From Selenomonadaceae bacterium (lineage in GTDB: Bacteria > Vulcanimicrobiota > Xenobia > Xenobiales > JADMJV01), in contig JBBCJA010000018.1 of assembly GCA_037189585.1 (NCBI GenBank), forward strand, positions 887-64,886: DNA of 64,000 nt. Reading direction: 5' to 3'. Both the position numbers and the translations under genes were made by a program. The notes below the pieces were generated by a model. It ran no database searches. It worked only from the letters and a program-made list of their open reading frames with translations, and had not been told where the DNA came from. Positions 37,404-55,587 of the stretch are shown piece after piece. Position 1 is the first letter of the stretch, and every line of letters begins with the position of its first letter.

Positions 37404-37653
37404 GTCACTACTCCTTTGACCATCCTGGAGAAGATCATCTCCACCAAGTCGCACTGATTCTACCCCACCTAAGTCTAGAGGCTACTCACGCCATCTAGTC
37501 TTTCGGAAAGCGCCAACGGTCTAGCTCTTCACGCCAAATCCTTGACGTATCCCGCTAGAACATTGGCGCTCTCGGAATTCCATCCTGAAGGATACCGCGC
37601 TTAGAATCGAGCCATGTCCAGGAACTCTTCTCGAAGACATCGGAAGGAGAACA

Positions 37654-38538
37654 ATGTCGCTTGCCAACAACGGAGAACTCTCAATGAACCGACGAAGATT
37701 CATCGCGGTGGGAATCGACCTGGGCGCGACCCTGGGTTCGCTTATCGTAGCCAAAGGCTCCGATGCTCAGATTCTCTCGAAAGGCAAGGACGACAAGACT
37801 GTGGAGAAAGCTCGAATTTTTATAACCGGCTCAGCTGACGGGCTAGGCTACGCCGCGGCCGAGACACTGCTTACCGCGGGACATGAGGTCGTCATCCACG
37901 TCCGGTCTAGCGCGCGCCTGTCTGCCGTGAAAGACCTGGTGGGTCAAGGTGCTGTCGCGACAATCGGAGACCTTTCCAAGCTCGACCAGATACGCGATCT
38001 CGCGAGGCAGGTCAACGAGCTCGGTCGGATGGACGCGGTGATCCACAACGCGGGCATTCTCTCCGGCCCGCGACTGCTCGTCGTCAACGTCGTGGCTCCG
38101 TATCTACTCACAGCGCTGCTCCAGCGCCCTCAACGGCTGATCTATCTGAGCAGCAGCATGCACACGGGAGGTCAGGCAAGTCTAACCGGCATGGATTGGT
38201 CTGGTCGTTCCTCCACCGGCTCTTATTCGGACAGTAAGCTGTTCGTCACGACTCTGGCGGCGGCGGTCGCCCGGCTTTGGCCGGACGTTTTGAGCAACGC
38301 GGTCGATCCGGGTTGGGTTCCCACCAAGATGGGAGGAGCCAATGCGCCGGACGATCTGCGGCTAGGACATCTGACGCAAGAATGGCTTGCCACCAGCAAC
38401 GACCCAGAGGCGCTGACCAGCGGGGGATACTGGTATCACCAAAAACTCCGGAAGCCGCACTCTTCTGTTCATGACACAAAATTCCAGGATCAGCTGCTGG
38501 CCGAGCTCGCCCGTGTCACGGACACTCCACTGAGGTAA
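37654..38538 (+). CDS. SDR-family oxidoreductase with a twin-arginine-like N-terminus
   Basis: ITGSADGLGYAAA (TGxxxGxG variant) and YSDSK (YxxxK) are present. The N-terminus is NRRRFIAVGIDLGATLGS. AAGGAG lies just upstream of the ATG. Confidence 0.75.
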   Translation: MSLANNGELSMNRRRFIAVGIDLGATLGSLIVAKGSDAQILSKGKDDKTVEKARIFITGSADGLGYAAAETLLTAGHEVVIHVRSSARLSAVKDLVGQGAVATIGDLSKLDQIRDLARQVNELGRMDAVIHNAGILSGPRLLVVNVVAPYLLTALLQRPQRLIYLSSSMHTGGQASLTGMDWSGRSSTGSYSDSKLFVTTLAAAVARLWPDVLSNAVDPGWVPTKMGGANAPDDLRLGHLTQEWLATSNDPEALTSGGYWYHQKLRKPHSSVHDTKFQDQLLAELARVTDTPLR

Positions 38539-38589
38539 CCTATCCAGCGTCACTCGACTTTAATTAGGCGCCTTACTAAATATCAACTC

Positions 38590-39112
38590 ATGAGCATGCT
38601 TGCGCGGAAACATCTTGCCTTGCTGGAGGGAGCCGAGCGTCGGACCTTTGCCGATACCGATAATATACGCGCATGTTTCGAGATACTGGCACTTGCTGGC
38701 GCGATTGACAGAGATTGCGCTGTTCGACTTGCTCCCTTCCATCTTTCAGAGGGCAAGTTCGTGCTCTTAATTTTCTTCTGCACGAGCAACCTGACGGTCT
38801 GTCAACTCACGAATTGAAAGGGCGGGTGTGACGCGCGCCACGATTACCGGGCTACTCGATGGCCTTGAGCGCGATGGCTTCGTCGCGCGACGCACCAGTC
38901 TAGACGGTCGACGGAGAATCACGGTCGTTCTGACCGAGCATGGGCGGAAGACTACGCACGAGCTTCTTGACAGCCACAACACGTGGATAGCCTCTCTTTT
39001 CGGGGAATTTACCACCAACGATCTCCAAACACTCCATGCACTCCTTCGACGCATCTGGAAAAATCTCGACGCTGGTGAGAAACCAGAAGAGAGACAAGAG
39101 CCCCGGTCATGA
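38590..39112 (+). pseudogene. MarR-family regulator gene split by a frameshift
   Basis: The N-terminal 75 codons (..LSEGKFVLLIFF..LTVCQLTN-stop at 38815-38817) continue in another frame (open from 38795) as SRIERAGVTRATITGLLDGLERDGFV... This is the MarR wHTH split in the middle of the recognition region. Confidence 0.55.
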
Positions 39113-39648
39113 GCGGTGGCGCCGTCCAGAGAATTCCGGCAGATCGACTTGCGCGAATCAATGCTGGGGAAGAAGCCGCCACGCTGGCCGAATGCCTTGC
39201 TGTCGATTTTGCAGAGCTCTTGAGTCATGTCTTGCCGGAAATAGGGAACGATGCCCTAGCCGAGATGAGACAAGCTGCATCAGTCGGCATCTCCCGACGT
39301 ATGCCCCTTGCCGCTCGCTTAATCACGGATCGACTCGGGTTTTCCGCTCAAGAACAACTTGCAGAACACTCGTCGGACACGGCGCGCGGCTGGGCCTGCT
39401 TTATGCTCGGCGCCGGCGAAGGAATGGACCTCCCCCAGCGGCTTGCGGCGATCAGGCCCTATGCCGATGCTCGACATTTCGGTGTACGCGAATGGGCATG
39501 GATGGCGGTTCGTCCCCACCTTGCGGCCGAACTTGAACTCGCGATCCCTTTGCTAGTCGGCGACTGGACATCTGACCCATCCGAGCGTATCCGCCGCTTT
39601 GCCTCGGAAGCTCTCCGGCCACGCGGTGTCTGGAGACAACAACGATGA
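39109..39648 (+). CDS. DNA-alkylation-repair (AlkD/HEAT-like) family protein, probably C-terminally truncated
   Basis: ADARHFGVREWAWMAVRPHL and RRFASEALRPRGVW blocks fit that family. The ORF stops 4 codons after RGVW, where homologues continue. The stop overlaps the next ATG. Confidence 0.45.
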   Translation: MSGGAVQRIPADRLARINAGEEAATLAECLAVDFAELLSHVLPEIGNDALAEMRQAASVGISRRMPLAARLITDRLGFSAQEQLAEHSSDTARGWACFMLGAGEGMDLPQRLAAIRPYADARHFGVREWAWMAVRPHLAAELELAIPLLVGDWTSDPSERIRRFASEALRPRGVWRQQR

Positions 39649-40150
39649 AGGCAAACCCACTGACTTACGAAGGTAAAGTAGCCCTTGTCACCGGAGCGGC
39701 TTCCGGTATGGGGCTGGCCACAGCCCAAGCTTTCGCGGAAGCTGGAGCCGCAGTCGTTCTCGCCGACTACCGAGTGGAGCTCGTCGAGCAGGAGGCCGAG
39801 AAGCTGCGGGCTTCCGGCGCGCAAGCTTTGGCGCTCGCCTGTGACGTGAGCGACGAGGCGTAGGTTGCCGCCATGATGGAACGGACGGTGGCCGAGTTTG
39901 GCCGCCTGGATGCCGCTTTCAATAACGCGGGCGTCATGGCCAAGCTGGCCCCCACCGCGGAGAGCACCCTCGAAGAATGGAACCGCGTTATCAACATCAA
40001 CCTGCGCGGCGTTTGGGCCTGCCTGAAACACGAGATCCTCCAGATGCAGAAGCAAGGAAGCGGCGCGATAGTCAACAACGCCTCGGTCGGCGCTCTGACC
40101 GGCACCGGGTATTCCTTCCTACATTGCCTCGAAACACGGCGTGATCGGGT
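39645..40150 (+). pseudogene. SDR oxidoreductase pseudogene (in-frame TAG, then frameshift and truncation)
   Basis: After VALVTGAASGMGLATA.. comes DVSDEA-TAG(39861-39863)-VAAMMERTVAEFGRLD in the same frame. Near 40113 the frame slips so that the YxxxK block SYIASKHGVIGL lies in another frame. SDR similarity ends near 40150. Confidence 0.65.
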
Positions 40151-40252
40151 TGATCCCGAGGACTCTTCGGAAGATAGGCTCTGCTACTTTGGAGGAAATT
40201 CTGACAAACGGAGAAATGTCTATCCAATGTATAGACAGAAGTATAGCTCTCT

Positions 40253-40495
40253 ATGAGAGCCAGGGTTACCAAGTGGGGAAATAGCCTGGGCTTGCGACTC
40301 CCCAAAGCTCTCTCCCAGCAACTTGGCATTGAGGAAGACGGATACGTGGAGATGGAGGTCTTCCAAGGGCAGTTAGTGATCCGGCCCTCCTCTCCCCCTC
40401 CGCTTTCTCTGGAAGAACTGGTCGGCCGCATTACCCCTGAGAATCGGCACGAAGAGATGGATTGGGGCGGGGCCGTGGGAGCCGAATTTTGGTAG
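40253..40495 (+). CDS. mazE: MazE/AbrB-fold type II antitoxin
   Basis: RVTKWGNSLGLRLPKAL is a SpoVT/AbrB swapped-hairpin motif. The protein is 80 aa with an acidic C-terminus. Confidence 0.8.
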   Translation: MRARVTKWGNSLGLRLPKALSQQLGIEEDGYVEMEVFQGQLVIRPSSPPPLSLEELVGRITPENRHEEMDWGGAVGAEFW

Positions 40496-40827
40496 CAGGC
40501 TATGTTCCCCAACGGGGAGATCTTGTTTGGATAGACTTTGACCCACAAAAAGGGCGTGAGCAGAGAGGGCGGCGCCCGGCCCTGGTTCTTTCTCCTCAAG
40601 AGTACAACCTCAAGAGTGCCCTGGCCTGGTTCTGCCCCGTCACCTCGAAGGTCAAGGGATATCCATTCGAGGTCCCCCTACCCGAAGGACAAAAGATCCA
40701 GGGAGTGATTCTGACTGACCAGGTCCGCAGCCTAGACTACAAAGGGCGGCGGGCTGAGTTTATCGCACGTGTAGACAACGAGATTTGCCAAGCCGCCCTG
40801 GCTCGTGCCAGAACACTTTTGAGTTAG
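40489..40827 (+). CDS. mazF: MazF/PemK-family endoribonuclease toxin
   Basis: YVPQRGDLVWIDFDPQKGREQRGRRPALVLSP...KGYPFEV...VILTDQVRSLD aligns along its length with E. coli MazF. TTG 40489 overlaps the mazE stop (the track start is 40462). Confidence 0.8.
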   Translation: MVAGYVPQRGDLVWIDFDPQKGREQRGRRPALVLSPQEYNLKSALAWFCPVTSKVKGYPFEVPLPEGQKIQGVILTDQVRSLDYKGRRAEFIARVDNEICQAALARARTLLS

Positions 40828-40838
40828 TTTGTCTGGCA

Positions 40839-42383
40839 TCAGCGTCCATCCCATCGCCGCAGAGGGGTCCAATCGGGCGGTGGCTGAAGCTGGGCGTTAC
40901 TGCCCACGATCACGTCCTGACTGACCTGCCAGTACTTCTGGACGTGGTGGGAAAGGTTATGAACGGCTCCCGTGTTGGGATTGATGAAGTCGTCCCGCTC
41001 GTTGATGCCATTGACCGTGTGGTGCTGCATCGTGTTGAAGGTGTTGCTCTGATTCTGCCAGCCGCTCATCTGCATGTCTCCCATCGCCATGTTGTTCTGA
41101 TGGATCTGAGTGTTGGACTGGCCCACCATGGCGATGTCGTTCATCCGCTGCTGATGCAGTGAGTTATTGAGATTAGCCCACTGGTTGTTGAGCTGACTCT
41201 GCTGAAACATCTGGTTTCCGAACATCGCTGAGGAGCGAGCCTGCTCGTTTTGTTTCCAAGCGGGATTGCTCTCCACACTTTGGGCTACACCTAGAAAGAC
41301 CGCCTCAAACTTCGGCATAAGAACAGCCGGCGCCTGATACCAGTAGGTATGGCCGCCCATCCAGCGGCCGGTGTTTCCCAGTGGAAAGCCACCCAGCTTG
41401 AGTACCCGAATGATGTCTCCCGGGAGCCAGATACGGACTTCAGCCTGGTCGGGCTTACCTTGGTCGGTGTAGCTTAACATGCGACAGCCCGGCATACTCT
41501 GCTGCCAGCGCGGCCACAACACATGCTCCACCGCCGGACGCAAACCATGAAAGGGACAGATGGTCTCCCCCATCGCTTGGGCCATCCCATGACCCGCGTT
41601 CGAGACCAGGCGGCCCAGCATACCGAAGAGCCCTTCATCCGGAGCCGCCTGACGCGGCAGCTCTCCCTGAATAAAGGTCTGATACTCAGGCTCGAGAGCC
41701 AAAAAGATATGCCCCGAAGACTCAGCGAAAACGCGGGCCATCGGCTGGCGCATCCCGGTCATGCTCGGCGGCGGTACCAGGCGTGACTGGCATTGCCATC
41801 CCAGCGGAAGGTCCAAGACGAAGGCGCCTTCCTGAGGTTCACACCAGCGCTGCCTTGGGATCGGCGCGATGGGATTGAGAGAGGCGAGCATCTTTCCGAA
41901 CTGGGTCTCCAGTTCGCCTTGAAAGTTGGGGCGGCTCCGCCCTACCGCCAGTGTCCCCCCTTGCGGTGTTAAGTGCACGGAGATCACCCCTCGCCACTCC
42001 GGCCCTTCGAAAGCAGCTCTGAGATAGCTGTCGCTACTCCCCTCGAGAATCTCGCCTTGATGTCCAGGCAAGGTCGCAAGATACAACTCCGCGTGCTGAG
42101 CGGCGTTTATCATGGTCTGGGCCGGGAGAAGAACGAGCTCGAGTTGGGCTAAGAGCTCGGGGCCCTGAAAGGTTACCCCGGCTCCTTCTGAAGCAACCGC
42201 CTCCCATCCGTCCGGGGAAACGGTCGCGAACCCACGCCAGGCATTCTGGTAAAGCTGATATCCCGGCTCGATGTCCGGCGCTTTCAAAATCGTGGCGGTA
42301 CTCGGCGCACCGCATCGCTGGCAAGCGGTCTGCTCCCGAAGAACCTCCCCATCGCAATGCTGACAAAAAGACTTCAAAATCAT
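40839..42383 (-). CDS. Zinc-ribbon protein with a Q/N/M/H-rich low-complexity region
   Basis: The N-terminus is CQHCDGE..CQRCG. Residues 384-455 are dominated by Q, N, M and H. Confidence 0.65.
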   Translation of the reverse strand: MILKSFCQHCDGEVLREQTACQRCGAPSTATILKAPDIEPGYQLYQNAWRGFATVSPDGWEAVASEGAGVTFQGPELLAQLELVLLPAQTMINAAQHAELYLATLPGHQGEILEGSSDSYLRAAFEGPEWRGVISVHLTPQGGTLAVGRSRPNFQGELETQFGKMLASLNPIAPIPRQRWCEPQEGAFVLDLPLGWQCQSRLVPPPSMTGMRQPMARVFAESSGHIFLALEPEYQTFIQGELPRQAAPDEGLFGMLGRLVSNAGHGMAQAMGETICPFHGLRPAVEHVLWPRWQQSMPGCRMLSYTDQGKPDQAEVRIWLPGDIIRVLKLGGFPLGNTGRWMGGHTYWYQAPAVLMPKFEAVFLGVAQSVESNPAWKQNEQARSSAMFGNQMFQQSQLNNQWANLNNSLHQQRMNDIAMVGQSNTQIHQNNMAMGDMQMSGWQNQSNTFNTMQHHTVNGINERDDFINPNTGAVHNLSHHVQKYWQVSQDVIVGSNAQLQPPPDWTPLRRWDGR

Positions 42384-42568
42384 ACAGTATCACCTTACCT
42401 TACAATTCTATCTCTTTCGGTGACGTCGGTCACGTGAGAAGGTGCAAGTCAATGGACGGACAGCCGTTAGCTCCGGTCCGACTCATGAGGCCGGTGACTC
42501 CGATAGGTCCTGTAGAGATTCGAGACCTCTTGGAATGAAGATTACCTGACACGGGCGAACGGGCCGGC

Positions 42569-43393
42569 ATGAAACGCGCGGCGCTGGTCTATGATTTTGA
42601 CGGAACCTTAGCACGGGGGAACATTCAGGAGCATTCTTTCATCCCCGGACTCGGCATCGAGATCGAGGATTTTTGGCAGCGCTCGAACGGGGCGGCCCGC
42701 GAGCACGACGCCGATCAGATTCTCACCTATATGTATGAGATGATGGTTCAGGCCAAGTCTCGTGGGCTGAAGCTGACCCGAGACTCTCTCTTAGAGCACG
42801 GTCGTACCGTGCCATTTTTCGACGGGGTGGAGAGTTGGTTCGGCCGGGTGAACGCCTATGCTCAGAGTCAGGGGCTTGCCCTGGAGCACTACGTCATCAG
42901 CTCGGGCATCCGCGAGATGATCCTCGGTTGCTCCGTCGCTCAGGAGTTCCGGCAGGTTTTCGCCTCGAGCTTTCTCTACAATGAAGAGGGAGAGGCGGTA
43001 TGGCCGGCCTTGAGTATCAACTACACTACCAAGACCCAATATCTGTTCCGCATCAACAAAGGTATCGACAACTGCTGGGACAACGAGGCCATCAACCGCT
43101 GGGTTCCTCCCGGAGACCGCCGTCTGCCCTTTGAGAACATGGTGTTTTTAGGCGACGGTGAAACGGATATCCCCTCGATGAAGATGGTACGTCATCAAGG
43201 CGGTTACGCCGTGGCCGTGTTCGACCCCGAGAAATGGGATAGGCTGCAGTCGCGCATTACCGGCCTGATCGCCGAAGACCGCACCAACTTCGTCGCCCCT
43301 GCTGACTATTCCGAGGGCAGTCAGCTGGAAGTCACCGTGCGCGGCCTCCTGGGGCGAATCGCCGGACCAAAAGAGTGTACGACATCTTTATGA
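42569..43393 (+). CDS. HAD-superfamily hydrolase
   Basis: Motif I VYDFDGTLA and motif IV FLGDGETDIPSMK. Confidence 0.75.
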   Translation: MKRAALVYDFDGTLARGNIQEHSFIPGLGIEIEDFWQRSNGAAREHDADQILTYMYEMMVQAKSRGLKLTRDSLLEHGRTVPFFDGVESWFGRVNAYAQSQGLALEHYVISSGIREMILGCSVAQEFRQVFASSFLYNEEGEAVWPALSINYTTKTQYLFRINKGIDNCWDNEAINRWVPPGDRRLPFENMVFLGDGETDIPSMKMVRHQGGYAVAVFDPEKWDRLQSRITGLIAEDRTNFVAPADYSEGSQLEVTVRGLLGRIAGPKECTTSL

Positions 43394-43514
43394 AAGGGAA
43401 TCACGAATAGCCTTTGGGTCTCTCACCGCCTTGGCGGCTTTTCTTCTTTCTTGCTCGACCGCTGAAAGGAGCTTGAAGGCGGAACCGCCAGCCTTGGAAG
43501 CGAAGCGGCGGGGC

Positions 43515-44849
43515 ATGACTAGAGCTCGTCGGGGTATGCTGGTGGCCGGGGTGCTGTTGGCTCTTCTTTTCCTGGGCGGCTGGCTGGCTGACCGGGCTTG
43601 GAACAGGCAGGCCGAGGAGGATGTTCGACGGAGGCTGCTCGATTCGCTGAGCAACGACCAGAGAAGAAAACTGCTCAATGTATCTAAAGACGAACTTCTA
43701 CGTCAGGTCTCTGGAATCGAACAAGAGCTCCAGTGGCTTCAGTCCACTCCATGGGGAGCCGAGGTATGGGAGCAAGGTCGTCTCTTGGGACAGACACCGA
43801 TGCCCCGACCCAAGGGCGACACGACCTTAGAACTTCGCACTCCGTGGCGAAGGGCGACGGTTGGTCCTGGGGAATTGCAGGCGACCCTCTCCCCAAATCT
43901 CCTCACCCTGAGCTTACGCCTGGCTGGGCTGCTGGGGTTGGCTCTCATCGGGCTATCCTTTCGCTCTCGTCCCGAGCCTATCGAAGCCGTCGAAACCGTC
44001 GAGGCAATCGAGGAACGAAAGCCCGTTGCCGAGTCGGATCGCTTTGGAGACTTCGAGAGACTAGAGCTCTGCGGCGAAGGAAGCATGGGTACTGTCTACC
44101 GCGCCCGTTCGAGCAAAGCCGACAATCGTTCGGTCTACGCGCTGAAGATTCTCCATCCCCAATGGAGCCAGGCAGAGGAATTTCGCCAACGCTTCGAGCG
44201 AGAGTACCACATCTGCCGGCAGCTCGATAGCGACCGAGTGGTGCGGGTTCACGCCCACGGCGAAAAGGACGGTCGACTTTGGATGGTCATGGATTTCGTC
44301 GAAGGCCCTACCTTGACCGAGTGGTTGGCTTCAACCCCTCGTCAGGAGTGTGAGATTCTAGAGATAGCCGTGGCTATCTGCGACGGACTCTCCTACGCCC
44401 ACGGCCTGGGTATCGTGCATCGCGATCTTAAGCCCGACAACATCCTTGTCAGCGGCGAGAGGTCGCCCGTGATCACCGACTTTGGACTGGCTCGCAGCCG
44501 CCACTACGCTACCATCACCCAGGCCCATACCGTGCTCGGAACCCCCGCCTATATCGCCCCTGAGCAAGTCGAAGGGTCCACCATCAACGGCCAAGCCGAT
44601 CTCTATTCTCTGGGCTGCATACTTTACGAAGCACTCGCCGGGAGACCACCGTTCCAAGGCGAGGCTATGCAAGTGGTGTTAGCTCAGCTCACCAAGCAGC
44701 CAGAGCCTCTCTCCGAGTACGTCAAGGTTTCTCCGGCCTGCGAGGCTTTAGTTCATCGCCTTTTGGCCAAAGACAAGTCGAGCCGCTACGCCTCCGCCGA
44801 AGAGGTGCGCCAAGATCTGCTGGCCGCCAATAAGGGCGCGATCGCTTGA
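43515..44849 (+). CDS. Hanks-type Ser/Thr protein kinase with an N-terminal TM region
   Basis: [17 protein letters not shown] and GTPAYIAPE are present. ATG 43515 chosen (track TTG 43431). Confidence 0.85.
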
Positions 44850-46129
44850 AGTCTCGCCAGTCGTTGATCAGGCTCCGCCCTCAGTAGCTTCTCCACTAAT
44901 TCCGCGAAAGCCGGTGGACAGTCGAGGCGCACTTGGGCCAACGGCCGATACCGCTCCTGAGCTTGCGCGGCTAAAATTTGTAGCCCTTCGCACTCGGCAT
45001 ATGGTCCAGCTCCACAAGCCCAGGCGTACAAAGTACATCCCAAGGCGTAGTAGTCCGAAGCGGCCACAGCGCTGCCTTGAAGCTGCTCAGGCGCCATAAA
45101 GCCCAAAGTTCCCGAATGGCCGCTAGTCTCTCCCTGCTCCGACAGCCGCCCAGCGACCCCGAAGTCGAGAAGATGGGCCTTCCCTCTTGCATCAATGATC
45201 ACGTTGGCAGGCTTAAGATCGCGATGCACGATACCCTTGTCGTGGGCGTAATCGAGCGCCGTGGCCAGTTGCTCCGCCCAAACCTCGAGCTGTGCGAACG
45301 ACGGCCTAACGATCTCCTCACTTCTTCTTCCTTCCACCAGTTCCGTGACGAGCCAGACAAAATCTGTGCTCTCGCCCCAGTCCAAAAGATGAACGATGTG
45401 CGGGTGGGAGAGAGTTCTCCAGACCTCCACTTCGTCGCGGAAGCGGTGACGCGCCTCTGGGTCATCGGTCCAATCGGAGCGCAATACCTTCATCGCCAGT
45501 GGCTCTCCCCCATCCAAGCGGCGCACACGGTAGACGCGGCTCATACCTCCCCGCCCAAGCTCTCCCTTGATTCTATAGCCGAACAGCTCCACTCCCGGGT
45601 GCAACTCTTTTCGAGCTAGCGACTCGCTCAGACGTCGCTGTCGGCGTAGAACCGGGCGAACCCTAAAGAACCCAAACCCGGCAAGGATGAGCACAACGGA
45701 AAGGAGCGGAGCGAAGTCGCGCGCCGCGTAGCACAGAGGCGACAGAACCCACCACCTGGAACGCATCTCCACCATCCGTTCACCCCGAGCGAGCTCCTCA
45801 GGGGAAAGATGAACCGTCTCTTCATGGTATCCTGGCAAGGAGAGAATTAAGGTAAAGTCCGCCCTCTCCTCAAGGCCGATAGGGAGAGGGCCTGGAGTGT
45901 ACCCAATGGGGTTTCTGTGGAATCCGCTCACGCTCATGGAGTAGGTATCGACTCTAGCGCCGCTCGGGCGGCTCCGGAGATAGATGGCCCCGAGAGCTTC
46001 TCTTTTGGGCCAAGAAAGCCAAATTTGCCCCAAGAGCAGAATGCAACTTATCGCGGCTATCCCATAAGTTTGACGACGCAACTTCTCCACTCCGGCTAGT
46101 GCAGCATTCGGCCAACACCTCCCTGCCAT
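44786..46129 (-). CDS. Ser/Thr protein kinase with an N-terminal PEGA-like domain and TM helix
   Basis: [17 protein letters not shown] and [10 protein letters not shown] are present. The PEGA-like block is SRPSGARVD...GYTPGPLPI...[13 protein letters not shown]. Confidence 0.85.
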
Positions 46130-46197
46130 CCGTGTGTTGAAGTCTTCAGTCGTGAAGTATTCTTCCCACCGGTGCGATCTGTTAAAATACCGCTGTC

Positions 46198-46602
46198 GTG
46201 AGGAAAAGGAGCAAATATGGATTCTCCTTAGCGGAGTTGATGCTCGCTTTTGTCGTGCTTTCCGTTCTCTCGGTCGTGCTTATCGGAGTCGTTCCCTCCA
46301 CGATTATCGGTCTCAAGGGGGCAAGCCAAAGGGCCAATGCGGCACTGCTGGCTCAAACCCAACTCGAGGAGCTTCGCCGCACCGGATTTAGCTCCGTCAC
46401 CCCGACTCTCGAACCGTATCCCACAGCCGTGATGGAGCGGACCGACTATACCTACCGAGTCGAGGTGGAAGAGGCCCGACTGAGCAGCGGAGAGGCCATG
46501 AGTCCTGATGTCGCCAAGCTAGCCAGCGTGGTGGTTGAGTGGCGGAGTAAGAGCGGACCCCAGACTTATACCGCCAGCGCGGTGATGTTCAAGCGGATAT
46601 GA
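46198..46602 (+). CDS. Minor pseudopilin, GspI-like size (prepilin-type N-terminus)
   Basis: Leader MRKRSKYG followed by [23 protein letters not shown] (Gly-1, Glu+5). Confidence 0.8.
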
Positions 46603-47213
46603 GCCGTCAAAGTGGAGTAAGCTTAGTGGAGGTCATGATCGCCGGCGGCCTCCTTTTACTCGTCACCGCGATGATGGTCGCTCTGCTCCTACCCTCCTTT
46701 TCTCTCTTCCGCAAACAGGGAGGGCAGTCGGATGCCTATCGCGTGTGTCTGCAAACCATCGAAAAATTTCGCCTGGAGATGCTCAACACTCAACTGGAAT
46801 GCCTTACTATCACCCCGGATCTGCAAGCCATCGCCTGGCAGGAGACTCTGGCGGATCCTCCTTTCTCCGTGACCAGTGGAGAGCCGCTCATGAATGACAT
46901 CTTCACAGTTTTGCACTACCGTGATCGACGAGTGCTAATAACGCGCAGCGAACCGAGTGGGACCGGAACCTCCACTATCCCCTCGCGACTGGGCCTTGAT
47001 GAGGTGATGGAATTGCGTGCTCGTCAAACGAGGACCCTGGCCCGCGATATCACCGCTTTTGAAGTTCGCGACAACGACCCGGACTCGCCCCTCACAACGC
47101 CTCCCATTCGTATGTCTTTGACCTGCACTATCGATACCAAGGGAAGAGCCAGCAACGACGAAGAGTCCTTTAAGATGAACGTAACCGTCACGCCGAGGAG
47201 CCAACGCTGGTGA
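46599..47213 (+). CDS. Minor pseudopilin, GspJ-like size
   Basis: Leader MSRQSG followed by VSLVEVMIAGGLLLLVTAMMVALLL (Glu+5). A 4-nt start/stop overlap occurs on both sides. Confidence 0.75.
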   Translation: MSRQSGVSLVEVMIAGGLLLLVTAMMVALLLPSFSLFRKQGGQSDAYRVCLQTIEKFRLEMLNTQLECLTITPDLQAIAWQETLADPPFSVTSGEPLMNDIFTVLHYRDRRVLITRSEPSGTGTSTIPSRLGLDEVMELRARQTRTLARDITAFEVRDNDPDSPLTTPPIRMSLTCTIDTKGRASNDEESFKMNVTVTPRSQRW

Positions 47214-49090
47214 GAATTTCAATTCGTGGAGCTGTCTCCCTACTCTCCGTACTCTGCCTGGTGGGGATCGTGATGATTCTCGCTTCGGCCATGGTCGGAG
47301 TGTTCTCGATGAATCTGAACATGACCCAAAAGTCGTTCAACGGCTCCATCGCCGAATCCGAAGCCGAAGCTGGGATAGCCGAAGCGCTTTACCGTATCAC
47401 CGACGCCAATGACAACAATATCGACAACAGTCAACAGCCGCCCGCGGTAAAGTACGGCCGCTCCAGCGAGACGATTCGAGGCACCATCACCCCGAAACTC
47501 AGTCCAGAGGAAGCTTACCACGTCGTAACTTTTGCCGAGGGGACCGGATTCCCACATTCCACCAATAACACCTATCTCGATCGCGATACCGGCTCTTTGG
47601 GACGGGCCGTGCCTGACGGGATGTTTCACATCGTCTCCACCGGCTACTGCCGTGGTCAATATCGCACCATCGAGGCCTTGATCTCCAAACCTCCCTTTCC
47701 TTTTGGTCTGGCCACCTCCGGAAAGTTGGTGTCGCCCGATCCTTTCGTCGTCAAAGGGGTCTCCTCGATATCCGACCTACTCGACGACAAGGAAGATCGC
47801 CCTGGACATATTCTTTGTAACTCCCCAGAAGGCGTAACGATCGGACAGAGCGATCCGCCTCGACCAACCTACATCAGTGGTTTCGTGAAATCGGTCGGAC
47901 CGATCTCCATCGAGCAGCCCGCCCAAGTTTTAGGAGGGTTGCGCCCAGGAGCCGATGCCTCCACTCTTGCCACTATCGATGTCAAGAAGTTCAGGAATGA
48001 AGGTCAGCCCGGAGTTGTGACGATCAACGATCCGAACTTCGTCAGAGATCAGACCATGGACATCATGTACTTTTACTCTGGCAACCTGCTCACCTACGAG
48101 CGTTCGGTCAAGCTCAACAAGGCCTTTCTTTATGTCGAGGGCGACCTCTTGATCAAGGGTCCGGTCACTGGTGAAGGCCTGATCGTGGTGGACGGAAACG
48201 TCACCTTCGGCTCAGGCACAGCCCTAGATGGCGCCAACAAGATGGCGGTACTCGCCTCCGGCGACATCACGATTCGGGGGGCCAACAACTATTTCACCGG
48301 CCTCATTTACTGCGGAGGAGACTTTACAGCCTCCAACGTGACGGTGGTAGGGAATACCGTGGTCAACTCCCCCGATCCTGAGAAAGGTAAAGCGAACCTG
48401 GAGAATGTGACGATGATCAGCAACACCGAAACAGCGGACATGACGATCACCATCACTTCAAGTAGTCACGCCGAGGGGCAGGATAACGCCCCCGATGCTG
48501 TCATTCCGCTCGGTATCACCTCAGACACCTTCGGGTTACCCACGGACTGGGATTACTCCAATGGTGGCGGTGGTGGGCTTGGTGGCTGGATCGACCCAAA
48601 AAATCCCCAAAGCATGTACGTGGAAATTTTGATGGATCTCTGGCAGGCCTCTCTTGACCCCTCTTCCCAATTCCCCGTCCTGGGAATGAAACCGTCTGGA
48701 AAAGGTGTCGACGGTATCTGGGATCAAGCGACCGCTCTCTACGAGCTCGCGAGCCAAAATCGAAGTGTCAGTGACCAGATCAACCAGTTGGAATCGAGCA
48801 AAGAATCCGCGCAGGGAAACCATGAACTCTTGGCCCAAATTGAAGCTCAAATTCAAGCACTCGAAGCATCACAAGCCGAGGCCAAGATCGTCTTTCAAAC
48901 CGCGGCGGCGGCTCTCGTCAATTCTATTTACAACCACATGAAAGCCCACGCCGACGGCGATGGAACGTACGACGACGGCACTGTGGACATGGACATCGTC
49001 ATCAAGCAGAGATTCAACCTCAACGAGTATCTTCCCGAGAGCGAACGGGTCAAGATCGCCTATTGGCGGGTTCATCACCGCCGCTTCTAG
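47210..49090 (+). CDS. GspK/PilX-like large minor-pseudopilin-family protein (626 aa)
   Basis: Hydrophobic N-terminal helix, then SIAESEAEAGIAEALYRI (PilX_N/GspK-like). The central repetitive beta-rich block is paralogous to 269..2014. A C-terminal coiled coil is followed by the LPESERVKIAYW motif. Confidence 0.65.
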   Translation: MRISIRGAVSLLSVLCLVGIVMILASAMVGVFSMNLNMTQKSFNGSIAESEAEAGIAEALYRITDANDNNIDNSQQPPAVKYGRSSETIRGTITPKLSPEEAYHVVTFAEGTGFPHSTNNTYLDRDTGSLGRAVPDGMFHIVSTGYCRGQYRTIEALISKPPFPFGLATSGKLVSPDPFVVKGVSSISDLLDDKEDRPGHILCNSPEGVTIGQSDPPRPTYISGFVKSVGPISIEQPAQVLGGLRPGADASTLATIDVKKFRNEGQPGVVTINDPNFVRDQTMDIMYFYSGNLLTYERSVKLNKAFLYVEGDLLIKGPVTGEGLIVVDGNVTFGSGTALDGANKMAVLASGDITIRGANNYFTGLIYCGGDFTASNVTVVGNTVVNSPDPEKGKANLENVTMISNTETADMTITITSSSHAEGQDNAPDAVIPLGITSDTFGLPTDWDYSNGGGGGLGGWIDPKNPQSMYVEILMDLWQASLDPSSQFPVLGMKPSGKGVDGIWDQATALYELASQNRSVSDQINQLESSKESAQGNHELLAQIEAQIQALEASQAEAKIVFQTAAAALVNSIYNHMKAHADGDGTYDDGTVDMDIVIKQRFNLNEYLPESERVKIAYWRVHHRRF

Positions 49091-49103
49091 GGCCCCACGA
49101 CTG

Positions 49104-49133
49104 TCACTCGAAATAAGTGTTGAAAACTGTACA
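49104..49133 (-). pseudogene. Fragment: stop codon plus last 9 codons of a homologue of gene 50642..51040
   Basis: 26 of 30 nt are identical to 50642-50671. It encodes CTVFNTYFE-stop versus YTVFNTYFE-stop, and three of the four changes are synonymous. Confidence 0.5.
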
Positions 49134-49146
49134 GCGTGCTCTCGGG

Positions 49147-49289
49147 ACCGGCTGCAGTCGCGCATCACCGGTCTGATAGCCGAAGACCGCACCAACTTCG
49201 TCGCCCCCGCCGACTACTCCGAGGGAGTCAGCTGGGGGTAACCGTGCGCGGTCTCCTCGGACGGATCGCCGGACGAAAAGTACGTCATC
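49147..49289 (+). pseudogene. Fragment: 3' end of a HAD hydrolase gene homologous to 43238-43393
   Basis: It encodes DRLQSRITGLIAEDRTNFVAPADYSEG, identical to the intact gene, with mostly third-position differences. A 1-nt deletion then shifts the frame. There is no 5' part. Confidence 0.75.
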
Positions 49290-49312
49290 CGTGAATTGCC
49301 TGTCCTCGACGG

Positions 49313-50584
49313 CTAGTTACCAGAGGGCTCCGCTGCGAGCTTCTCAGGTCGGTCCACCCGCCCCATCATGAGTACCGCGCCGCTGCCGCTATGTCGTAGG
49401 AGAAAGGCGAAAGGCCGCTCGAAGGTCAAAACCTTTGGTGGGGGTTTGACAGCCGACCCTCTCCGGCTCACGACCACGGCTGTGGCAGCGGCGGCTTCCG
49501 TACCCTCTTCATCCACTTTCACGTATGTCTTGTGATAGATGTTGAGCTCAAGTCGCTCGGGACTATCCAGGATCAGCATGCGGGTCAGATCGGGGTTCTT
49601 CACGACCTGCGCTAGACCGATTTCTCGCCAGGCCTCGGTCAGCTCGAAGGTGGGCACCTCGAATTCGAAGCGTGGTAGTCTCAGGGTGACCTCCTCCGCG
49701 GATTCGCTCGGCTCGAGGTAGAAAGAGGAGAGCGCCTTGTCGGGCTCTATTCCCTGGTCCGGCAATAAAAAGACCATCTCGAAGCCCTCCTGATAGGGCA
49801 AGGTCACCCCGGTCGCCCCCCGCAGGCGGAAGCTGGCGACCCCTGGGCGTGTCATCATCGGGGTTTGTAGTGTCTCTCCCGAGGAAGTCGTGAAGGTTCC
49901 CGGTCGAGTGTGTTCTTTCTCGAACTTACTCCGCCAGCTCCCCTTGAAGTGCAGGGCGGAGACCAGCACGCTGACGGTATCGCGACCGAGCGTGGGTAGA
50001 AAATCTTTGATCAGACCGGCGGTACGCTCGGCCACCCAGTCGTTGATGACTTGTGTCGCCCTCTTCGGGTCAGTGGAGAAAGGTAGAACTTGAACAGGAT
50101 CGGTCAGTAACGGCTTGATCTTGACGGAGTAACTCTCGACAAGCTTGACCGACTGATCCAGATAAATTTTCTGGGCCAAAGCCAGAGATTCGGTCTCGTC
50201 CAAACCGCCGGCTAGCTTCGTCAGCTCCCCGAGGACCTCTCCTTTCAGCCCGGTGGCCGCGGCGATCTCCTCTTTGGTTCTCCCTTCAGCTCCCTCTTGC
50301 ATCAGACCTAACAGAAGGTAAGAGCCCAGCGGACTGACAGCCAGGTTTCCGGGCTTCTTCCCGGCCACCGCTTCGTACAAGTTCTTGTTGAAGTTAGCCA
50401 ACCCAACACTAACCTCTTTAGAGATAACGAGCTCGGGGACTGCGGAGGGTGGAGGTGCCACCAGCTTCTGAACGGGTGATGGAGAGGCTGTCTGCTGTGG
50501 CCCCGGTGGGAGCGAGGAAGGTTGGCAAGCGGAAATAAGGAGGCCTCCGAAGATGCCCAAAGCCAAGAGTTTGAGTGAGTTCAT
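49313..50584 (-). CDS. Serpin (serine protease inhibitor) lipoprotein
   Basis: Reactive-centre-loop hinge EEGTEAAAATAVVV, serpin blocks FKGSWRSKF and FERPFAFLL, and lipobox LLISAC. Confidence 0.85.
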   Translation of the reverse strand: MNSLKLLALGIFGGLLISACQPSSLPPGPQQTASPSPVQKLVAPPPSAVPELVISKEVSVGLANFNKNLYEAVAGKKPGNLAVSPLGSYLLLGLMQEGAEGRTKEEIAAATGLKGEVLGELTKLAGGLDETESLALAQKIYLDQSVKLVESYSVKIKPLLTDPVQVLPFSTDPKRATQVINDWVAERTAGLIKDFLPTLGRDTVSVLVSALHFKGSWRSKFEKEHTRPGTFTTSSGETLQTPMMTRPGVASFRLRGATGVTLPYQEGFEMVFLLPDQGIEPDKALSSFYLEPSESAEEVTLRLPRFEFEVPTFELTEAWREIGLAQVVKNPDLTRMLILDSPERLELNIYHKTYVKVDEEGTEAAAATAVVVSRRGSAVKPPPKVLTFERPFAFLLRHSGSGAVLMMGRVDRPEKLAAEPSGN

Positions 50585-50641: not shown

Positions 50642-51040
50642 TCACTCGAAGTAGGTGTTGAAAACGGTATAGGATTTGAGTAGCTTCTCCGCCATCGCGT
50701 TACGCCTAGTTGCATCCTTCTCGCTAGCCATGGTGTTGACCATCTCCATGTACGGGACCAGCCAGTTGTGCAGCTGATCGTGCGCCGGACCCGTCATGGT
50801 GCAGTTGGAGACAAGTTTTTGTAGATTGGACTGAAGCTCCCGATGGAGCAGTTGTTTCTGGGAGTTTGAGGCGGAAGGGTATTCGCGAAGGTCTTTTTCC
50901 ATAGCACGCAGGTAGACCATCATCTTAGGCTCCACTTTCCAACGCTCACCGGCATTGAGATCGAGCTTCGTTTCTGAATCAGCCCAGGTGGGAGCTGAGG
51001 AAAGTAAGAGTAGGGCTAGAACGAGGAGTAGTTTGGGCAT
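50642..51040 (-). CDS. Secreted hypothetical helical protein
   Basis: 132-aa ORF with a signal peptide (LLLLSSAPTWA). Confidence 0.6.
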   Translation of the reverse strand: MPKLLLVLALLLLSSAPTWADSETKLDLNAGERWKVEPKMMVYLRAMEKDLREYPSASNSQKQLLHRELQSNLQKLVSNCTMTGPAHDQLHNWLVPYMEMVNTMASEKDATRRNAMAEKLLKSYTVFNTYFE

Positions 51041-51176: not shown

Positions 51177-51941
51177 CTAAAAGAGAGAGGCGTCAAGCTC
51201 CTCGAAACTTGTCATGACTTCAAACCCGAGTCCGCGATAGCAACGGATGGCAACCTCGTTGGCCGCCCGAACGTTTAGTCCGATATGATCGACATCCTGG
51301 AGGAGGCGACGACATAGCGTTCCTACCACGCGATTTGCCAAGCCGCGTCCGCGAAAGTCAGGATGGGTTGCTATGTTTCCCAAAGCGGCCACTTTGTAGC
51401 GTGGAGACCAGACGTGAACGCCAGCCACGCATGCTAGTCGTCCATCCATGCGCAGCCCCAGGTAGCGTTCCGTCACCAGCATGATGGGGTCGAACCAGTT
51501 CCCGGGATAGCTCTGGTCATAGAAGGCCACAAGCTCAGTCTCAGTGTCTTGAGTAAGGGTCTCGACAGCCGGGTCCTCCTCGGGCAACTTCTCCGGCCGC
51601 TCTAAAGCCATGCGTAGGGTCGTCATCCGGCCGCTGACCTGATAGTGCTGCTCAAGGACTGTTACCAATCCCGGCGCGATCTGAGCATGGAAGTGCCTGG
51701 GCAACAAAGATGCCGCCTGAGCCAATAGTTCACGCGCACCGGCCGTTTCCCTCATAGCCAAAAGGGCCGGTGGAGAAGCGGCATAGAGCAACATCACCGC
51801 CTCGAGGTCGTCAGAAGAGTACCAAGAGGTACGAGGCCAATAGAGGGCGTCCAAGTCACCCAACTCGTAAAGGTGAAGAAGAGGGTCTCTAGCCAGGCTC
51901 CGTTCGATAAGATCGCGATCGTGGAGAATAAGCACCCCCAC
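51177..51941 (-). CDS. GNAT family N-acetyltransferase
   Basis: C-terminal acetyl-CoA-binding block FRGRGLANRVVGTLCRRLL ... AIRCYRGLGFEV. Confidence 0.7.
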   Translation of the reverse strand: MGVLILHDRDLIERSLARDPLLHLYELGDLDALYWPRTSWYSSDDLEAVMLLYAASPPALLAMRETAGARELLAQAASLLPRHFHAQIAPGLVTVLEQHYQVSGRMTTLRMALERPEKLPEEDPAVETLTQDTETELVAFYDQSYPGNWFDPIMLVTERYLGLRMDGRLACVAGVHVWSPRYKVAALGNIATHPDFRGRGLANRVVGTLCRRLLQDVDHIGLNVRAANEVAIRCYRGLGFEVMTSFEELDASLF

Positions 51942-52005: not shown

Positions 52006-54606
52006 CTAGAACCGGTCAGGCACTTCTAGTCGAACTCTCAAAAATGAAGATCGAAGTGACGTGGTGGGGACATCGACAAAGAGAAATTTCTCTCCACCAG
52101 GAGCCGCGTCCCAAAGCCTACTATCCGTGGGTGAGGCGTGAGGGAGCTGGAGTAGCCGCGTGGGGCTCTCGGAATAATCCGGCTTGAGGACCCAAAGGGC
52201 TCCATCACGTTCAAACAAGAGCCTACCGTCCTGTAAAAAGACAGGGTGCCGACCCGGCCCGACACGCCGAAGTTCTCCTTCCGGCAGTCCGCGAAGGTAG
52301 ACCTCTTCCAAGCCGCTTTCGTTAGAAACAAAAGCCAGGATCTTCTCATCCGTGGAAACGTAAGGATGGCGTTCATCAAAAGGCGAGCTAACAACGGCTC
52401 GAGGCTCCTCGCCCGGTTTGACGACGTACAGGTCATGGTCACCGGCCTCGGTCTCTTGTTCAAACCAGATCCCCGAAGGCGTCCAACATTTCACGAACTG
52501 ACGCCGGGAACTCGTGGTGATTCGAGTCATCCGACCAGGTTTATCGAGGTCGAGAACGTAGATGTTGAAAGGTCCCTCTTGATCGGAGCTCACCGCCATA
52601 GTCGTGCCCTCGGGGGCGAAGGCAAAGCTTACGGTATTACCGCGATGAGTCACTCGGCGATCGAGGCGAGTCGAAAGCTCTCGGAACCATAGGGCGCGTA
52701 CATCGTCGTCAAAGCGGCGATAGCAAAGCACTTTGCCGTTCGGCGACAGGCGTGGCTCGACTCCATCAAACAACTCATCGGAGAGTGTCTCGCCCTGAGC
52801 GTCAATCCAAAGAACATGTCCCTCTCCCGTCTCCTCCGGCTCAAGATAGGCAAGCGTCCCCTGAGCCGCGCTGAAACCCGCCGCTCCTTTCTCGACGTCA
52901 CACCAGATTCGGGGAAGAATGACCCGATCGTTTTGCAGCAGCGCACCATCCCGAACCGCAAAGGTTCCTGTATCGGTAGGCCAACCCGAGTAGGCCTGGG
53001 TGGCGACCACACTGCGCTGACCGGTGGAGAGTTCGAGTCGCTCCACTCGACCAGAGGCATAGGTTCCACCGGAGCGCCGAGAAAAGTACAGCCCGTCTTC
53101 ATCGGCTCTGGGCCAACCCAGGACCGAATCTCCCGACTTGGGGTCGGGTGTCAGGAGCTTCTGAACCTTTCCTCCTCCTCCGCTAGCGACGCTGCTAATC
53201 CCACCCGAGGTTGTGGCAAAAACGATCCTCTCATCAACTGTCCAAGTGCCCCCCAGAAACTGATCGATGCGCAGGTCGTCGACGACTCTAGTCACCGGCC
53301 CCCCCTCCAAGGAGACCCAGACCAGACCCTTGCGGCCCAAAAATCCGAGACGGTCTCCCTGAGGAGAAAAGAAGGGGAAAGCTCCGTTCTCACTTCCGAC
53401 GATCAATCGACCCTCGGCCTGGTCGAACGGTTGAAAGAAAAGTTGGCGCCCCTTCTCGGTGAGAACGGGAACGACCACAGCCCGGCCATCCGGACGAAGT
53501 GCCGGTAGCGGATGTTCCACAGCCAAACTGATCCCTGGAGGGAGTGAAACGGAAAGATAAAGCGGTGTGGGAGAAGGTGAGAAAAGTGCCCTGCTTGGCG
53601 CGCTCTCCTGCCCTAGCAGAAAACCTACGCCGACGGCAATTCCAACTAGACCGAGTATGGCGCTGGTCAACCCGAGACGGAAGGGAGAGCTCCCTTTCAC
53701 CTCGGGGCGTGGGTGAGCGCTCGTCTGTCTGAGAGAGCTAGAGCTCGGCTGCTTGAGCGAGACGACTTCAGCCCCGGAGGTCGACACGAGCCTTTCTCCA
53801 ACCTCAGCCATGCTTTGCGGACGATCCTCCGGAGCTTTCCGTAGGCAATCTTTCAGTAAAGCCAAGAGTGAGCCCTGGTCGGGCACCAGGCTCCAGTCCG
53901 GCTCGTTGGTGAGTATGGCGTTGAGAGTCGCCGCGAGATTGTCCTTGGGGAAGGCCAATCGTCCCGTCACGGCCTCGTACAGACAACAACCCAAAGACCA
54001 GATCTCGGTCCGAACATCAGCGGACACCGCCCTGATCTGTTCCGGAGCAAGATAGGGAGCGGTCCCAACCAGGGTGCCTTCTCGCGTCGAGAACTCCGCC
54101 GCGCCGGTCAAGGTACCTTGCAGCTCCTTAGCCAACCCGAAGTCGAGTAGCTTCACCCGGTCGCGCGCCCCAATCATGATATTTCCAGGCTTGAGATCGC
54201 GATGAAGAATCTGACTTTGATGAGCTGTCTCCAGCGCCTCGGCCGCCTGGGCGAAGATCCGGCGAGCGCGGTCGAGGGGAATGGGCCCGGACTCAAGAAG
54301 CTTCTCCAAGGTCTGTCCCTCGACAAGCTCAAGAATCAGACATAGGGTACCCTGGTCGTCCTCCAGGTCGTAGATAGCGCCTATCCCGGGGTGATTGACC
54401 GCCGCGAGCAGCCGAGCCTCACGTTGAAAACGCGCGACTTTCTCCGGCTCGCTTGTCATCGACTCGGGCAAGACCTTGACAGCGACATGGCGCTCGAGGC
54501 GGGTGTCGATGGCTCGATAAACGGCCCCCATTCCACCTTCACCGATCTTCCCAAGGATGCGATACGGTCCGATCTCTTTGTCGGAAGCTAGACTCAACGA
54601 CGCCAA
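52006..54606 (-). CDS. Ser/Thr protein kinase fused to a TolB-like (PD40/WD40-like) beta-propeller region
   Basis: HRDLKPGNIMI, DFGLAK and GTAPYLAPEQ are present. A TM helix is followed by about 500 aa of propeller-like repeats. Confidence 0.85.
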   Translation of the reverse strand: MASLSLASDKEIGPYRILGKIGEGGMGAVYRAIDTRLERHVAVKVLPESMTSEPEKVARFQREARLLAAVNHPGIGAIYDLEDDQGTLCLILELVEGQTLEKLLESGPIPLDRARRIFAQAAEALETAHQSQILHRDLKPGNIMIGARDRVKLLDFGLAKELQGTLTGAAEFSTREGTLVGTAPYLAPEQIRAVSADVRTEIWSLGCCLYEAVTGRLAFPKDNLAATLNAILTNEPDWSLVPDQGSLLALLKDCLRKAPEDRPQSMAEVGERLVSTSGAEVVSLKQPSSSSLRQTSAHPRPEVKGSSPFRLGLTSAILGLVGIAVGVGFLLGQESAPSRALFSPSPTPLYLSVSLPPGISLAVEHPLPALRPDGRAVVVPVLTEKGRQLFFQPFDQAEGRLIVGSENGAFPFFSPQGDRLGFLGRKGLVWVSLEGGPVTRVVDDLRIDQFLGGTWTVDERIVFATTSGGISSVASGGGGKVQKLLTPDPKSGDSVLGWPRADEDGLYFSRRSGGTYASGRVERLELSTGQRSVVATQAYSGWPTDTGTFAVRDGALLQNDRVILPRIWCDVEKGAAGFSAAQGTLAYLEPEETGEGHVLWIDAQGETLSDELFDGVEPRLSPNGKVLCYRRFDDDVRALWFRELSTRLDRRVTHRGNTVSFAFAPEGTTMAVSSDQEGPFNIYVLDLDKPGRMTRITTSSRRQFVKCWTPSGIWFEQETEAGDHDLYVVKPGEEPRAVVSSPFDERHPYVSTDEKILAFVSNESGLEEVYLRGLPEGELRRVGPGRHPVFLQDGRLLFERDGALWVLKPDYSESPTRLLQLPHASPTDSRLWDAAPGGEKFLFVDVPTTSLRSSFLRVRLEVPDRF

Positions 54607-55585: not shown

Positions 55586-55587
55586 CA

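Follow-up and report, generated by a model that had tools for sequence, protein, structure and literature searches.

Remnants of duplicated HAD and 132-residue genes at a strain-variable chromosomal locus of an uncultured bacterium

The locus and its repeated gene fragments

The locus considered here lies in a stretch of 64,000 nucleotides (nt) of contig JBBCJA010000018.1 (Selenomonadaceae bacterium, assembly GCA_037189585.1), which is referred to below as the window and whose layout was drawn from a map of its open reading frames (ORFs) together with a Pfam scan (Table 1). An intact gene for a HAD-family hydrolase (HAD_1) is followed by a short 5' remnant of a DUF6929/DUF6910 lipoprotein gene (DUF6929 in what follows) and then by a 5.7-kb block composed of two kinase genes and a three-gene operon with pseudopilin-like products. 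To the right of this block stand the remnants of a second gene for a 132-amino-acid (aa) protein (132aa_1) and of a second HAD gene (HAD_2), and beyond them come a serpin gene, an intact 132-aa gene (132aa_2) and a GNAT acetyltransferase gene. The assignment of HAD_1 to its family is weak (PF12710, E 3e-5, 25 bits, under the gathering score of 27), and its protein is 98% identical to P0001. The 132-aa protein has just four homologues in the protein database; its gene adjoins that of the serpin also in two relatives described below (L071 and L072).

Both repeated fragments are true pseudogene remnants. An earlier note on this DNA had reported that the 3' end of the HAD gene recurs downstream of the block with a 1-nt deletion, and its coordinates and counts proved essentially right. 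The second copy occupies 49144-49289, is ~88% identical to HAD_1 overall and aligns with it in two parts (43236-43317 with 49144-49225, 90% over 82 nt; 43316-43373 with 49223-49280, 84% over 58 nt), HAD_2 being one base short after 49225. With the frame restored it reads DRLQSRITGLIAEDRTNFVAPADYSEG SQLGVTVRGLLGRIAGRKVRHP and reaches a stop at 49289. All eight differences from HAD_1 in the first 27 codons are synonymous, as are 13 of the 15 substitutions over 44 codons (binomial P ~1e-5 for at least 13 of 15, assuming that ~30% of random substitutions are synonymous). This almost wholly synonymous divergence shows that HAD_2 evolved as a working gene before its truncation; synonymous-dominated divergence followed by a 1-nt deletion and a 5' truncation is the pattern of a pseudogene derived from a functional paralogue or xenologue. 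The 132-aa gene fragment to the left of the HAD copy was likewise confirmed, with its count adjusted from 26 of 30 to 27 of 31 nt. It extends over 49104-49134 and corresponds to 50642-50672, the match begins exactly at the stop codon, and three of the four changes are synonymous, the remaining one converting Tyr to Cys.

Could these fragments nevertheless be artefacts, that is, either a chance similarity or a chimera in which strain variants of a metagenome were merged during assembly? At least 27 matches in 31 nt would arise by chance with a probability of ~6e-13 per position, or ~7e-8 times over both strands of the window. A chimera might be suspected, since the source looks like a metagenome-assembled contig and since related populations vary at this very place, with contigs that break at a 30-mer (see below). 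Yet the junction needs sequence found in neither parent gene, and the copies differ by 12% (HAD) and at 4 of 31 nt (132-aa gene), so that they would be neither collapsed nor bridged in a k-mer graph. Moreover, the identical arrangement occurs in a second assembly: the Logan contig SRR27999909_49216 (L069/L070), assembled separately, is 100% identical to the window over 20-21 kilobases (kb), the junction included, and homologous remnants are present in two further lineages from other samples. Artefacts of either kind are thus barely credible.

The direct HAD 3' repeats that surround the block (43236-43381 and 49144-49289) are of the kind that a Campbell-type integration leaves around its insert. 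They are gene fragments and not att sites, and the locus lacks the features of an island placed by site-specific integration through an integrase. Among the proteins scanned across 36-52 kb there is no integrase or transposase domain, and no tRNA gene lies near the locus, the only one standing 38 kb away at 5537-5611; the earlier statement that an integrase is missing thus stands, and can be extended to tRNA genes. The same note had proposed to profile GC skew and codon usage over 43.4-49.1 kb, and across this segment neither G+C content nor GC skew nor G+C content at third codon positions (GC3) gave a foreign signal or any anomaly. A second pseudopilin-like operon at 54.8-59 kb was considered as a paralogous source of the block and rejected, the proteins of the block matching none of its proteins; the only cross-match is a short N-terminal motif (147-aa versus 250-aa proteins).

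Table 1. Genes, remnants and repeats between the intact HAD gene and the GNAT gene (window coordinates)
Feature	Coordinates	Strand	Basis or remark
HAD_1, intact HAD-family hydrolase gene (274 aa)	42569..43393	+	weak Pfam HAD match, PF12710
HAD_1 3' segment with a second copy at 49144-49289	43236..43381	+	
DUF6929/DUF6910 lipoprotein gene, 5' remnant	43390..43489	+	alignment to L060; tblastn; Pfam of the intact L057 gene
Ser/Thr protein kinase 1	43515..44849 (ORF readable from 43431)	+	Pfam Pkinase, E 8e-52; start as in the L073 gene call
Ser/Thr protein kinase 2	44786..46129	-	Pfam Pkinase, E 2.5e-49
Pseudopilin-like protein with prepilin N-methylation motif	46198..46602	+	Pfam N_methyl, E 1.9e-5
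Second pseudopilin-like protein, 204 aa	46599..47213	+	N_methyl, E 0.0064, below the gathering score; position in the operon
626-aa protein, final gene of the block	47210..49090	+	no family match
132aa_1, remnant of a second 132-aa gene (stop and last 9 codons)	49104..49134	-	27 of 31 nt as in 50642-50672
9-nt filler CGTGCTCTC at the secondary deletion joint	49135..49143	.	resembles neither parent gene
HAD_2, remnant of a second HAD gene (codons ~223 to stop)	49144..49289	+	1-nt deletion after 49225
Serpin gene	49313..50584	-	Pfam Serpin, E 5.6e-71
132aa_2, intact 132-aa gene	50642..51040	-	apparent signal peptide; no family match
GNAT acetyltransferase gene, conserved right-hand neighbour	51177..51941	-	

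Gene content at the locus in related lineages

Close relatives of the locus were found in Logan and ENA assemblies alone, and five of its states were recovered. Lineage W comprises the window and L069/L070, with 100% identity and the same arrangement. Lineage A (L057-L062 and L072; samples including SRR29564162 and SRR29564168; 94% nt identity over 39645-43459) has no block and carries, after HAD, an intact DUF6929/DUF6910 gene of 343 aa. Lineage B (L073-L075; SRR21722011 and related runs; 93.4% nt identity over 43490-48573) has the block between a 3' remnant of DUF6929 and a long remnant of the 132-aa gene. In L071 (78% nt identity) a gene designated X is followed by the 132-aa gene and then by the serpin gene, an order which indicates that the neighbours of the 132-aa gene have been shuffled among relatives; X itself (L071 2-778) reads as a RecG-like segment at the N-terminus that leads into a multi-pass membrane protein, and may be a fusion or a decayed region. 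Finally, in the outgroup L076/L077 (HAD 82.5% identical in nt and 92.7% in aa), HAD faces GNAT across 75 nt; past GNAT, L076 is colinear with window 59.7-64 kb, and the left flank of its HAD gene differs from that in the window. One and the same position thus holds nothing in L076, DUF6929 in A, a DUF6929 remnant with the block in B, X, the 132-aa gene and the serpin gene in L071 and yet another content in W, with HAD and the 132-aa gene framing what differs from relative to relative. The earlier note had suggested a search for an empty arrangement of HAD, serpin and 132-aa gene; none was found, the sole empty state being that of L076.

When one genome per species was scanned with the HAD protein, no close relative came out (best full-length match 59% identical), and L053 holds an 81% aa-identical HAD fragment on a 5-kb contig with no useful context. 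Scans of metagenomes with DNA patterns gave no match for the 132-aa 3' end and, for the HAD 3' motif, one 79% relative with no informative context. The HAD relatives L063-L068 (83-87% aa identity) were tried as context and discarded, there being no synteny around HAD and no homologue of the serpin, 132-aa, kinase or pseudopilin genes among them. In L078 (1768-2560; JGI metagenome contig JRYL01011938.1), a 79% nt-identical HAD relative, the match falls into two tblastn pieces and the longest ORF has 216 aa, which suggests a disrupted HAD gene.

Where, then, does the block begin? The earlier note had it joined to HAD, but 70-100 nt of the DUF6929 5' end lie between HAD_1 and the block. Homology between the window and lineage A runs past the HAD stop and through the DUF6929 signal peptide (lipobox LLSC). 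It is solid up to 43462 and probable up to 43489, with an identity of 93-94% that equals that of the upstream flank; the 3' end of HAD_1 also shows this resident level of identity. With the DUF6929 protein of L057 as tblastn query (aa 4-41), the remnant gives 63% identity. It is broken by a 4-nt deletion, everything beyond ~codon 25-33 being deleted in the window, while in the closest relatives an intact DUF6929 gene directly follows HAD. Because the 5' end of DUF6929 is retained just after HAD, the left edge of the block lies in DUF6929 and not in HAD.

The same remnant has a consequence for the annotation of kinase 1. Its ORF can be read from a TTG at 43431 only because the remnant of the DUF6929 signal peptide (LAAFLLSCST) happens to be in frame, so that automated annotation could wrongly predict a lipoprotein kinase here. 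The true start is likely to be the ATG at 43515, as called in lineage B, and that at 43431 an artefact of the leftover signal peptide.

Lineage B supplies the complementary end of DUF6929. Contig L073 opens with the C-terminus of this gene (NPEEPATLFQLERPVEFRPSK, then the stop) ahead of kinase 1, and continues with the two kinases and the three-gene operon; because its first 28 nt are not DUF6929-like, lineage B keeps only ~70 nt of the DUF6929 3' end. Since the window and B retain complementary ends, they descend from a common ancestor with an intact DUF6929 gene upstream of the block; the window has since lost ~0.95 kb of that gene. At its other end L073 carries a remnant of at least 166 nt of a second 132-aa gene, with TGA, a premature stop, in place of a Cys codon; the identity of this remnant is 80% to window 50642-50807 and 91.5% to the remnant in L072.

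Comparison of the window with lineage B also brought out a hypervariable segment within the otherwise conserved gene for the 626-aa protein (aa ~450-600, window 48560-49010; L073 3825-5702). The C-terminal third is only 28-48% identical, against 80-100% per block of 50 residues over the first 450 (no less than 94% as far as residue 350) and 90% over the last 30. A further peculiarity of the block is a 48-nt inverted repeat, 90% complementary (44394-44441 and 45203-45250), which falls in the region of the two convergent kinase genes that encodes the catalytic loop (HRDLKP). The two kinase proteins are 31% identical overall, and the repeat may reflect local gene conversion or strong conservation of the motif.

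The lineage A contigs, from four samples, run from HAD through the intact DUF6929 gene to a 132-aa-like 3' end; the start of DUF6929 overlaps the HAD stop, and at its own stop the gene runs 13 nt into the 3' end of the 132-aa-like gene on the opposite strand. Three of these contigs (L057, L058 and L060) terminate at a common 30-mer, TAGGTGTTGAAAACCGTATAAGACTTGAGT, and L059 ends 10 nt short of it. The same 30-mer stands at both ends of L072, a serpin contig of 1609 nt from the same study, whose serpin gene is 94% identical in nt to that of the window. Past the serpin gene, L072 has sequence homologous to window 49285-49330, to which a short HAD piece (window 43189-43222, ~aa 207-219) is joined directly; further up from this piece comes a more degenerate HAD-like stretch. 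L072 also contains an ORF of 47 aa, the C-terminal 25 residues of which are 132-aa-like (EKDAAYRDKMAAKLLKSYTVFNT); the segment before them, TAALHLGGSHRPWL, matches the C-terminus of gene X of L071 (76% nt identity, all nine differences within the peptide being synonymous). The 132aa_1 remnant of lineage A and a piece of X (X') form one in-frame fusion, and HAD_2 is there without its last 55 codons. About 100 nt of L072 have no nucleotide match in the window; a part of this stretch was accounted for at the protein level, by similarity to gene X of L071 and to HAD. Since only one linear path through the 30-mer node uses every edge once, the order in lineage A should be HAD_1-DUF6929-132aa_1'-X'-HAD_2'-serpin-132aa_2.

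It is this 30-nt repeat in lineage A that makes short-read contigs break here, and the locus will break short-read assemblies in related populations. The two 132-aa 3' ends of lineage A are identical over these 30 nt and differ at the next base, those of the window differing at 4 of 31; gene conversion between the copies in lineage A is possible.

A probable ancestor with two adjacent modules and their separate decay

The earlier note had proposed, in its literal form, that a circular DNA from a diverged relative, in which the kinases and the pseudopilin operon stood between a HAD 3' part and the last nine codons of the 132-aa gene, entered the chromosome by one crossover in the resident HAD gene, and that the joint between the two fragments marks the closure of the circle. 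The HAD 3' repeats that bracket the block, the 132-aa fragment abutting the truncated HAD fragment, the synonymous divergence and the missing integrase all agree with this. They do not explain why a DUF6929 5' remnant with resident-level identity comes right after HAD_1, nor why lineage A, which has no block, has remnants of both 132aa_1 and HAD_2 at the same place; the scars are not tied to the block. Furthermore, the truncation points vary. Of 132aa_1, 31 nt remain in W, ~80-90 nt with X' attached in A and no fewer than 166 nt in B; of HAD_2, W retains aa ~223 to the end and A a different, adjacent piece (~aa 207-219) that is absent from the window. Because these points differ among the lineages, the joint 49134|49144 is a later, W-specific deletion and not the closure of a circle, and we regard the circle model as very unlikely. 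What stands of it is that the fragments are true remnants with synonymous divergence; the footprint of a block insertion does not. The findings come close, in fact, to an outcome that the earlier note itself had set against its proposal, namely that the fragments are remnants of local paralogues.

The duplicated frame is larger than was proposed, for it takes in DUF6929, the full 132-aa gene and part of the upstream gene X. An older integration of a segment HAD 3' part-DUF6929-(block)-132aa-X', by a single crossover or by one-sided homology, may have taken place, A then losing the block, and the broader idea, that recombination anchored in homology may have acted additively where HAD and the 132-aa gene form the frame, is viable as a reading of these gene orders.

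We favour, with a probability of about 62%, the view that the interval between HAD and GNAT, variable among strains, was built up by accretion and is at present being trimmed back, and that it descends from an ancestor with two adjacent modules. In the ancestor of W, A and B, each module would have been framed by the same two genes. The first would have consisted of HAD_1, DUF6929, possibly the block, 132aa_1 facing back and the 3' end of gene X; the second of HAD_2 (at least its last 80 codons, that is, from ~aa 195 or earlier), the serpin gene and 132aa_2, both facing back, and GNAT. The inner copies (132aa_1, X' and HAD_2), being redundant, would then have been shortened by deletions that occurred independently in the three lineages. 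In W, a single deletion would have left 31 nt of 132aa_1, the 9-nt filler and 146 nt of HAD_2, and a second would have taken DUF6929 from ~codon 25-33 to just past its stop. Lineage A, with no block and with DUF6929 intact, would have fused 132aa_1 in frame with X and lost the end of HAD_2. Lineage B would have retained the block between the 3' remnant of DUF6929 and the 132aa_1 remnant of at least 166 nt with its premature stop.

How might two such modules have come to lie side by side? Most likely, the HAD...132aa allele of a related strain was placed beside the resident one by additive recombination independent of an integrase, in which HAD would have served as the homologous anchor and the other end (X' to HAD) would have been closed by an illegitimate joint. 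Candidate routes would be homology-facilitated illegitimate recombination (HFIR) or the single-crossover integration of a circularised fragment. In L072 the region of the joint between X' and HAD_2' would lie at ~1467-1493, the original joint having been eroded.

The obvious alternative is a tandem duplication, within one genome, of HAD-DUF6929-(block)-serpin-132aa, followed by the reciprocal loss of the serpin gene from the first copy and of DUF6929 from the second, and by decay of the inner HAD and 132-aa genes. The frame genes, their order and their orientation are indeed shared by both modules, mobility genes are absent, and over the same 132 nt the window HAD_1 and HAD_2 (88%) are slightly more diverged than the HAD_1 orthologues of W and A (90%). 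HAD_2 is 87% identical to HAD_1 of lineage A over this segment, and other lineages are at ~75%. Several observations speak against it, however. Both inner junctions are as tight as native convergent pairs (the stops of DUF6929 and 132aa_1 overlap by 13 nt in A, and 23 nt separate the stops of HAD_2 and the serpin gene), so that the reciprocal deletions would have had to be nearly exact; the outer neighbours differ, X being upstream of 132aa_1 and GNAT of 132aa_2; 132aa_1 and 132aa_2, at 80% identity, are as diverged as the orthologue of L071 (79.5%); and the synonymous bias requires both HAD copies to have been functional for long. Because the cargo differs, the inner junctions are tight and the upstream neighbours are X and GNAT, respectively, the juxtaposition of two alleles is likelier than a duplication in place, which we consider improbable.

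A different alternative, to which we give the same low weight, starts from two dispersed paralogous loci, HAD_1-DUF6929-132aa_1-X and HAD_2-serpin-132aa_2-GNAT, fused by a deletion or rearrangement that ended in X and in HAD_2. It would account for truncated genes on both sides of the joint, as a deletion leaves them, and for purifying selection on both HAD copies, as expected of functional paralogues. It would also agree with the flanks, since that to the left of HAD_1 (a 514-aa gene and MazEF) is not syntenic with the outgroup and that to the right, from GNAT to a glycoside hydrolase, is. Still, it would presuppose that the HAD...132aa frame had earlier been duplicated or acquired with its order and orientation unchanged, and a second locus was seen neither in the 64-kb window nor in any relative examined.

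Several points weigh against the two-module ancestor too. Since neither HAD_2 nor 132aa_1 was found intact in any genome, the full-length ancestors are extrapolated from complementary remnants. The order in lineage A was pieced together from short de Bruijn contigs that break at the 30-nt repeat and was not read whole, and within the one study that yielded them, L072 and the contigs L057-L060 derive from different samples. Lineage B is seen as one contig of 5.9 kb, with the side of HAD_2 and the serpin gene outside its span. Moreover, the outgroup L076 shows no synteny with the left flank of HAD_1, so that the modules could have been joined by a larger rearrangement instead of a small insertion.

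A last point concerns the block, which is present in W and B and absent from A. The 14 nt to the left of the 132aa_1 stop are similar in A (TTCAAGAGTCCCAC) and W (TTCTAGGGCCCCAC), with p ~0.017, and a comparison of A with B over the 14-30 nt beside this stop was not significant. The similarity between A and W is a weak hint that A may have lost the block through a deletion between TTC microhomologies; if so, the block could belong to the original incoming module, as the earlier note supposed. It may have arrived with module 1, been inserted later or been lost in A, the arrangements being compatible with each.

A bolder and rather doubtful reading would make HAD and the lineage-specific 132-aa gene recurrent homologous anchors of a cassette-exchange locus free of integrases, at which whole alleles (DUF6929, the kinase/pseudopilin block, the serpin gene) are added side by side through one-sided homologous recombination and then pruned, the near-identical 132-aa ends of 30-40 nt in lineage A being kept alike by gene conversion as handles for recombination. 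If this were true, the locus would preserve a natural record, from an uncultured lineage, of alleles captured additively again and again.

Relation to known systems and further variable stretches

PMC3240628 defines HFIR as an integration of foreign DNA, in the course of transformation or conjugation, that relies on homology at one side. The locus resembles it in having no integrase, and would also share with it a single homologous anchor (the HAD 3' part), an illegitimate joint of unrelated sequences (X' to HAD_2') and foreign genes added beside a partly duplicated anchor. It differs in that HFIR is defined experimentally and usually gives short inserts, while the event at this locus is old, its joint is eroded, and it is known here from sequence alone; a link between the two may nonetheless be suggested. 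Campbell-type integration, with repeats around the insert and a novel circle joint, has the topology of the two-module state proposed above. By contrast, the joint in the window is not a circle joint, the scars occur in a lineage free of the block, and no empty site differing by the insert alone was found among the relatives examined.

Flexible genomic islands are stretches of strain-variable gene content at a fixed chromosomal position between conserved core genes. The locus likewise shows four contents between the same frame genes (nothing in L076; DUF6929, serpin and 132-aa genes in A; a DUF6929 remnant with the block in B; and that of the window), is without mobility genes and has a native-like base composition. 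Such islands are usually swapped by double crossover, without scars, whereas here two alleles adjoin and the inner copies are decaying. Duplication followed by degeneration would leave lesions that vary by lineage, and the inner copies indeed show frameshifts, nested deletions, in-frame fusions and a premature stop; the different cargo and outer neighbours of the modules argue against a simple tandem duplication in place.

What is the significance of these arrangements? What is seen at this variable locus of an uncultured bacterium is genome plasticity of an ordinary kind, and it reveals neither a new mechanism nor a new type of genetic element. It is, however, a small and well-resolved example of how a chromosomal region changes among close relatives without genes of mobile elements, in which redundant inner genes were removed piecemeal, separately in each lineage, after the alleles had ended up side by side. 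The junction of fragments that is seen today should accordingly not be taken for the original recombination joint.

Two further stretches near the locus vary as well. The first occupies window 35953-39645, where 3.7 kb carry an AraC-type regulator, a short-chain dehydrogenase and a HEAT-like ORF; lineage A (L057 5726-7113) has in its place 1.4 kb with a 108-aa gene and a HisKA_3 histidine kinase. Its right boundary is a split adh_short gene (39645-40256), beside a MazE/PemK toxin-antitoxin pair (40253-40827). The other lies between GNAT and an MGH1-like glycoside hydrolase gene. In the window (52006-58985) it contains an 866-aa kinase with PD40-like repeats and an operon for proteins of 985, 147 and 250 aa, the 147-aa protein having an N_methyl motif; in the outgroup L076 (4206-7345), two small ORFs and a gene of the HCO3-transporter family are found there instead.

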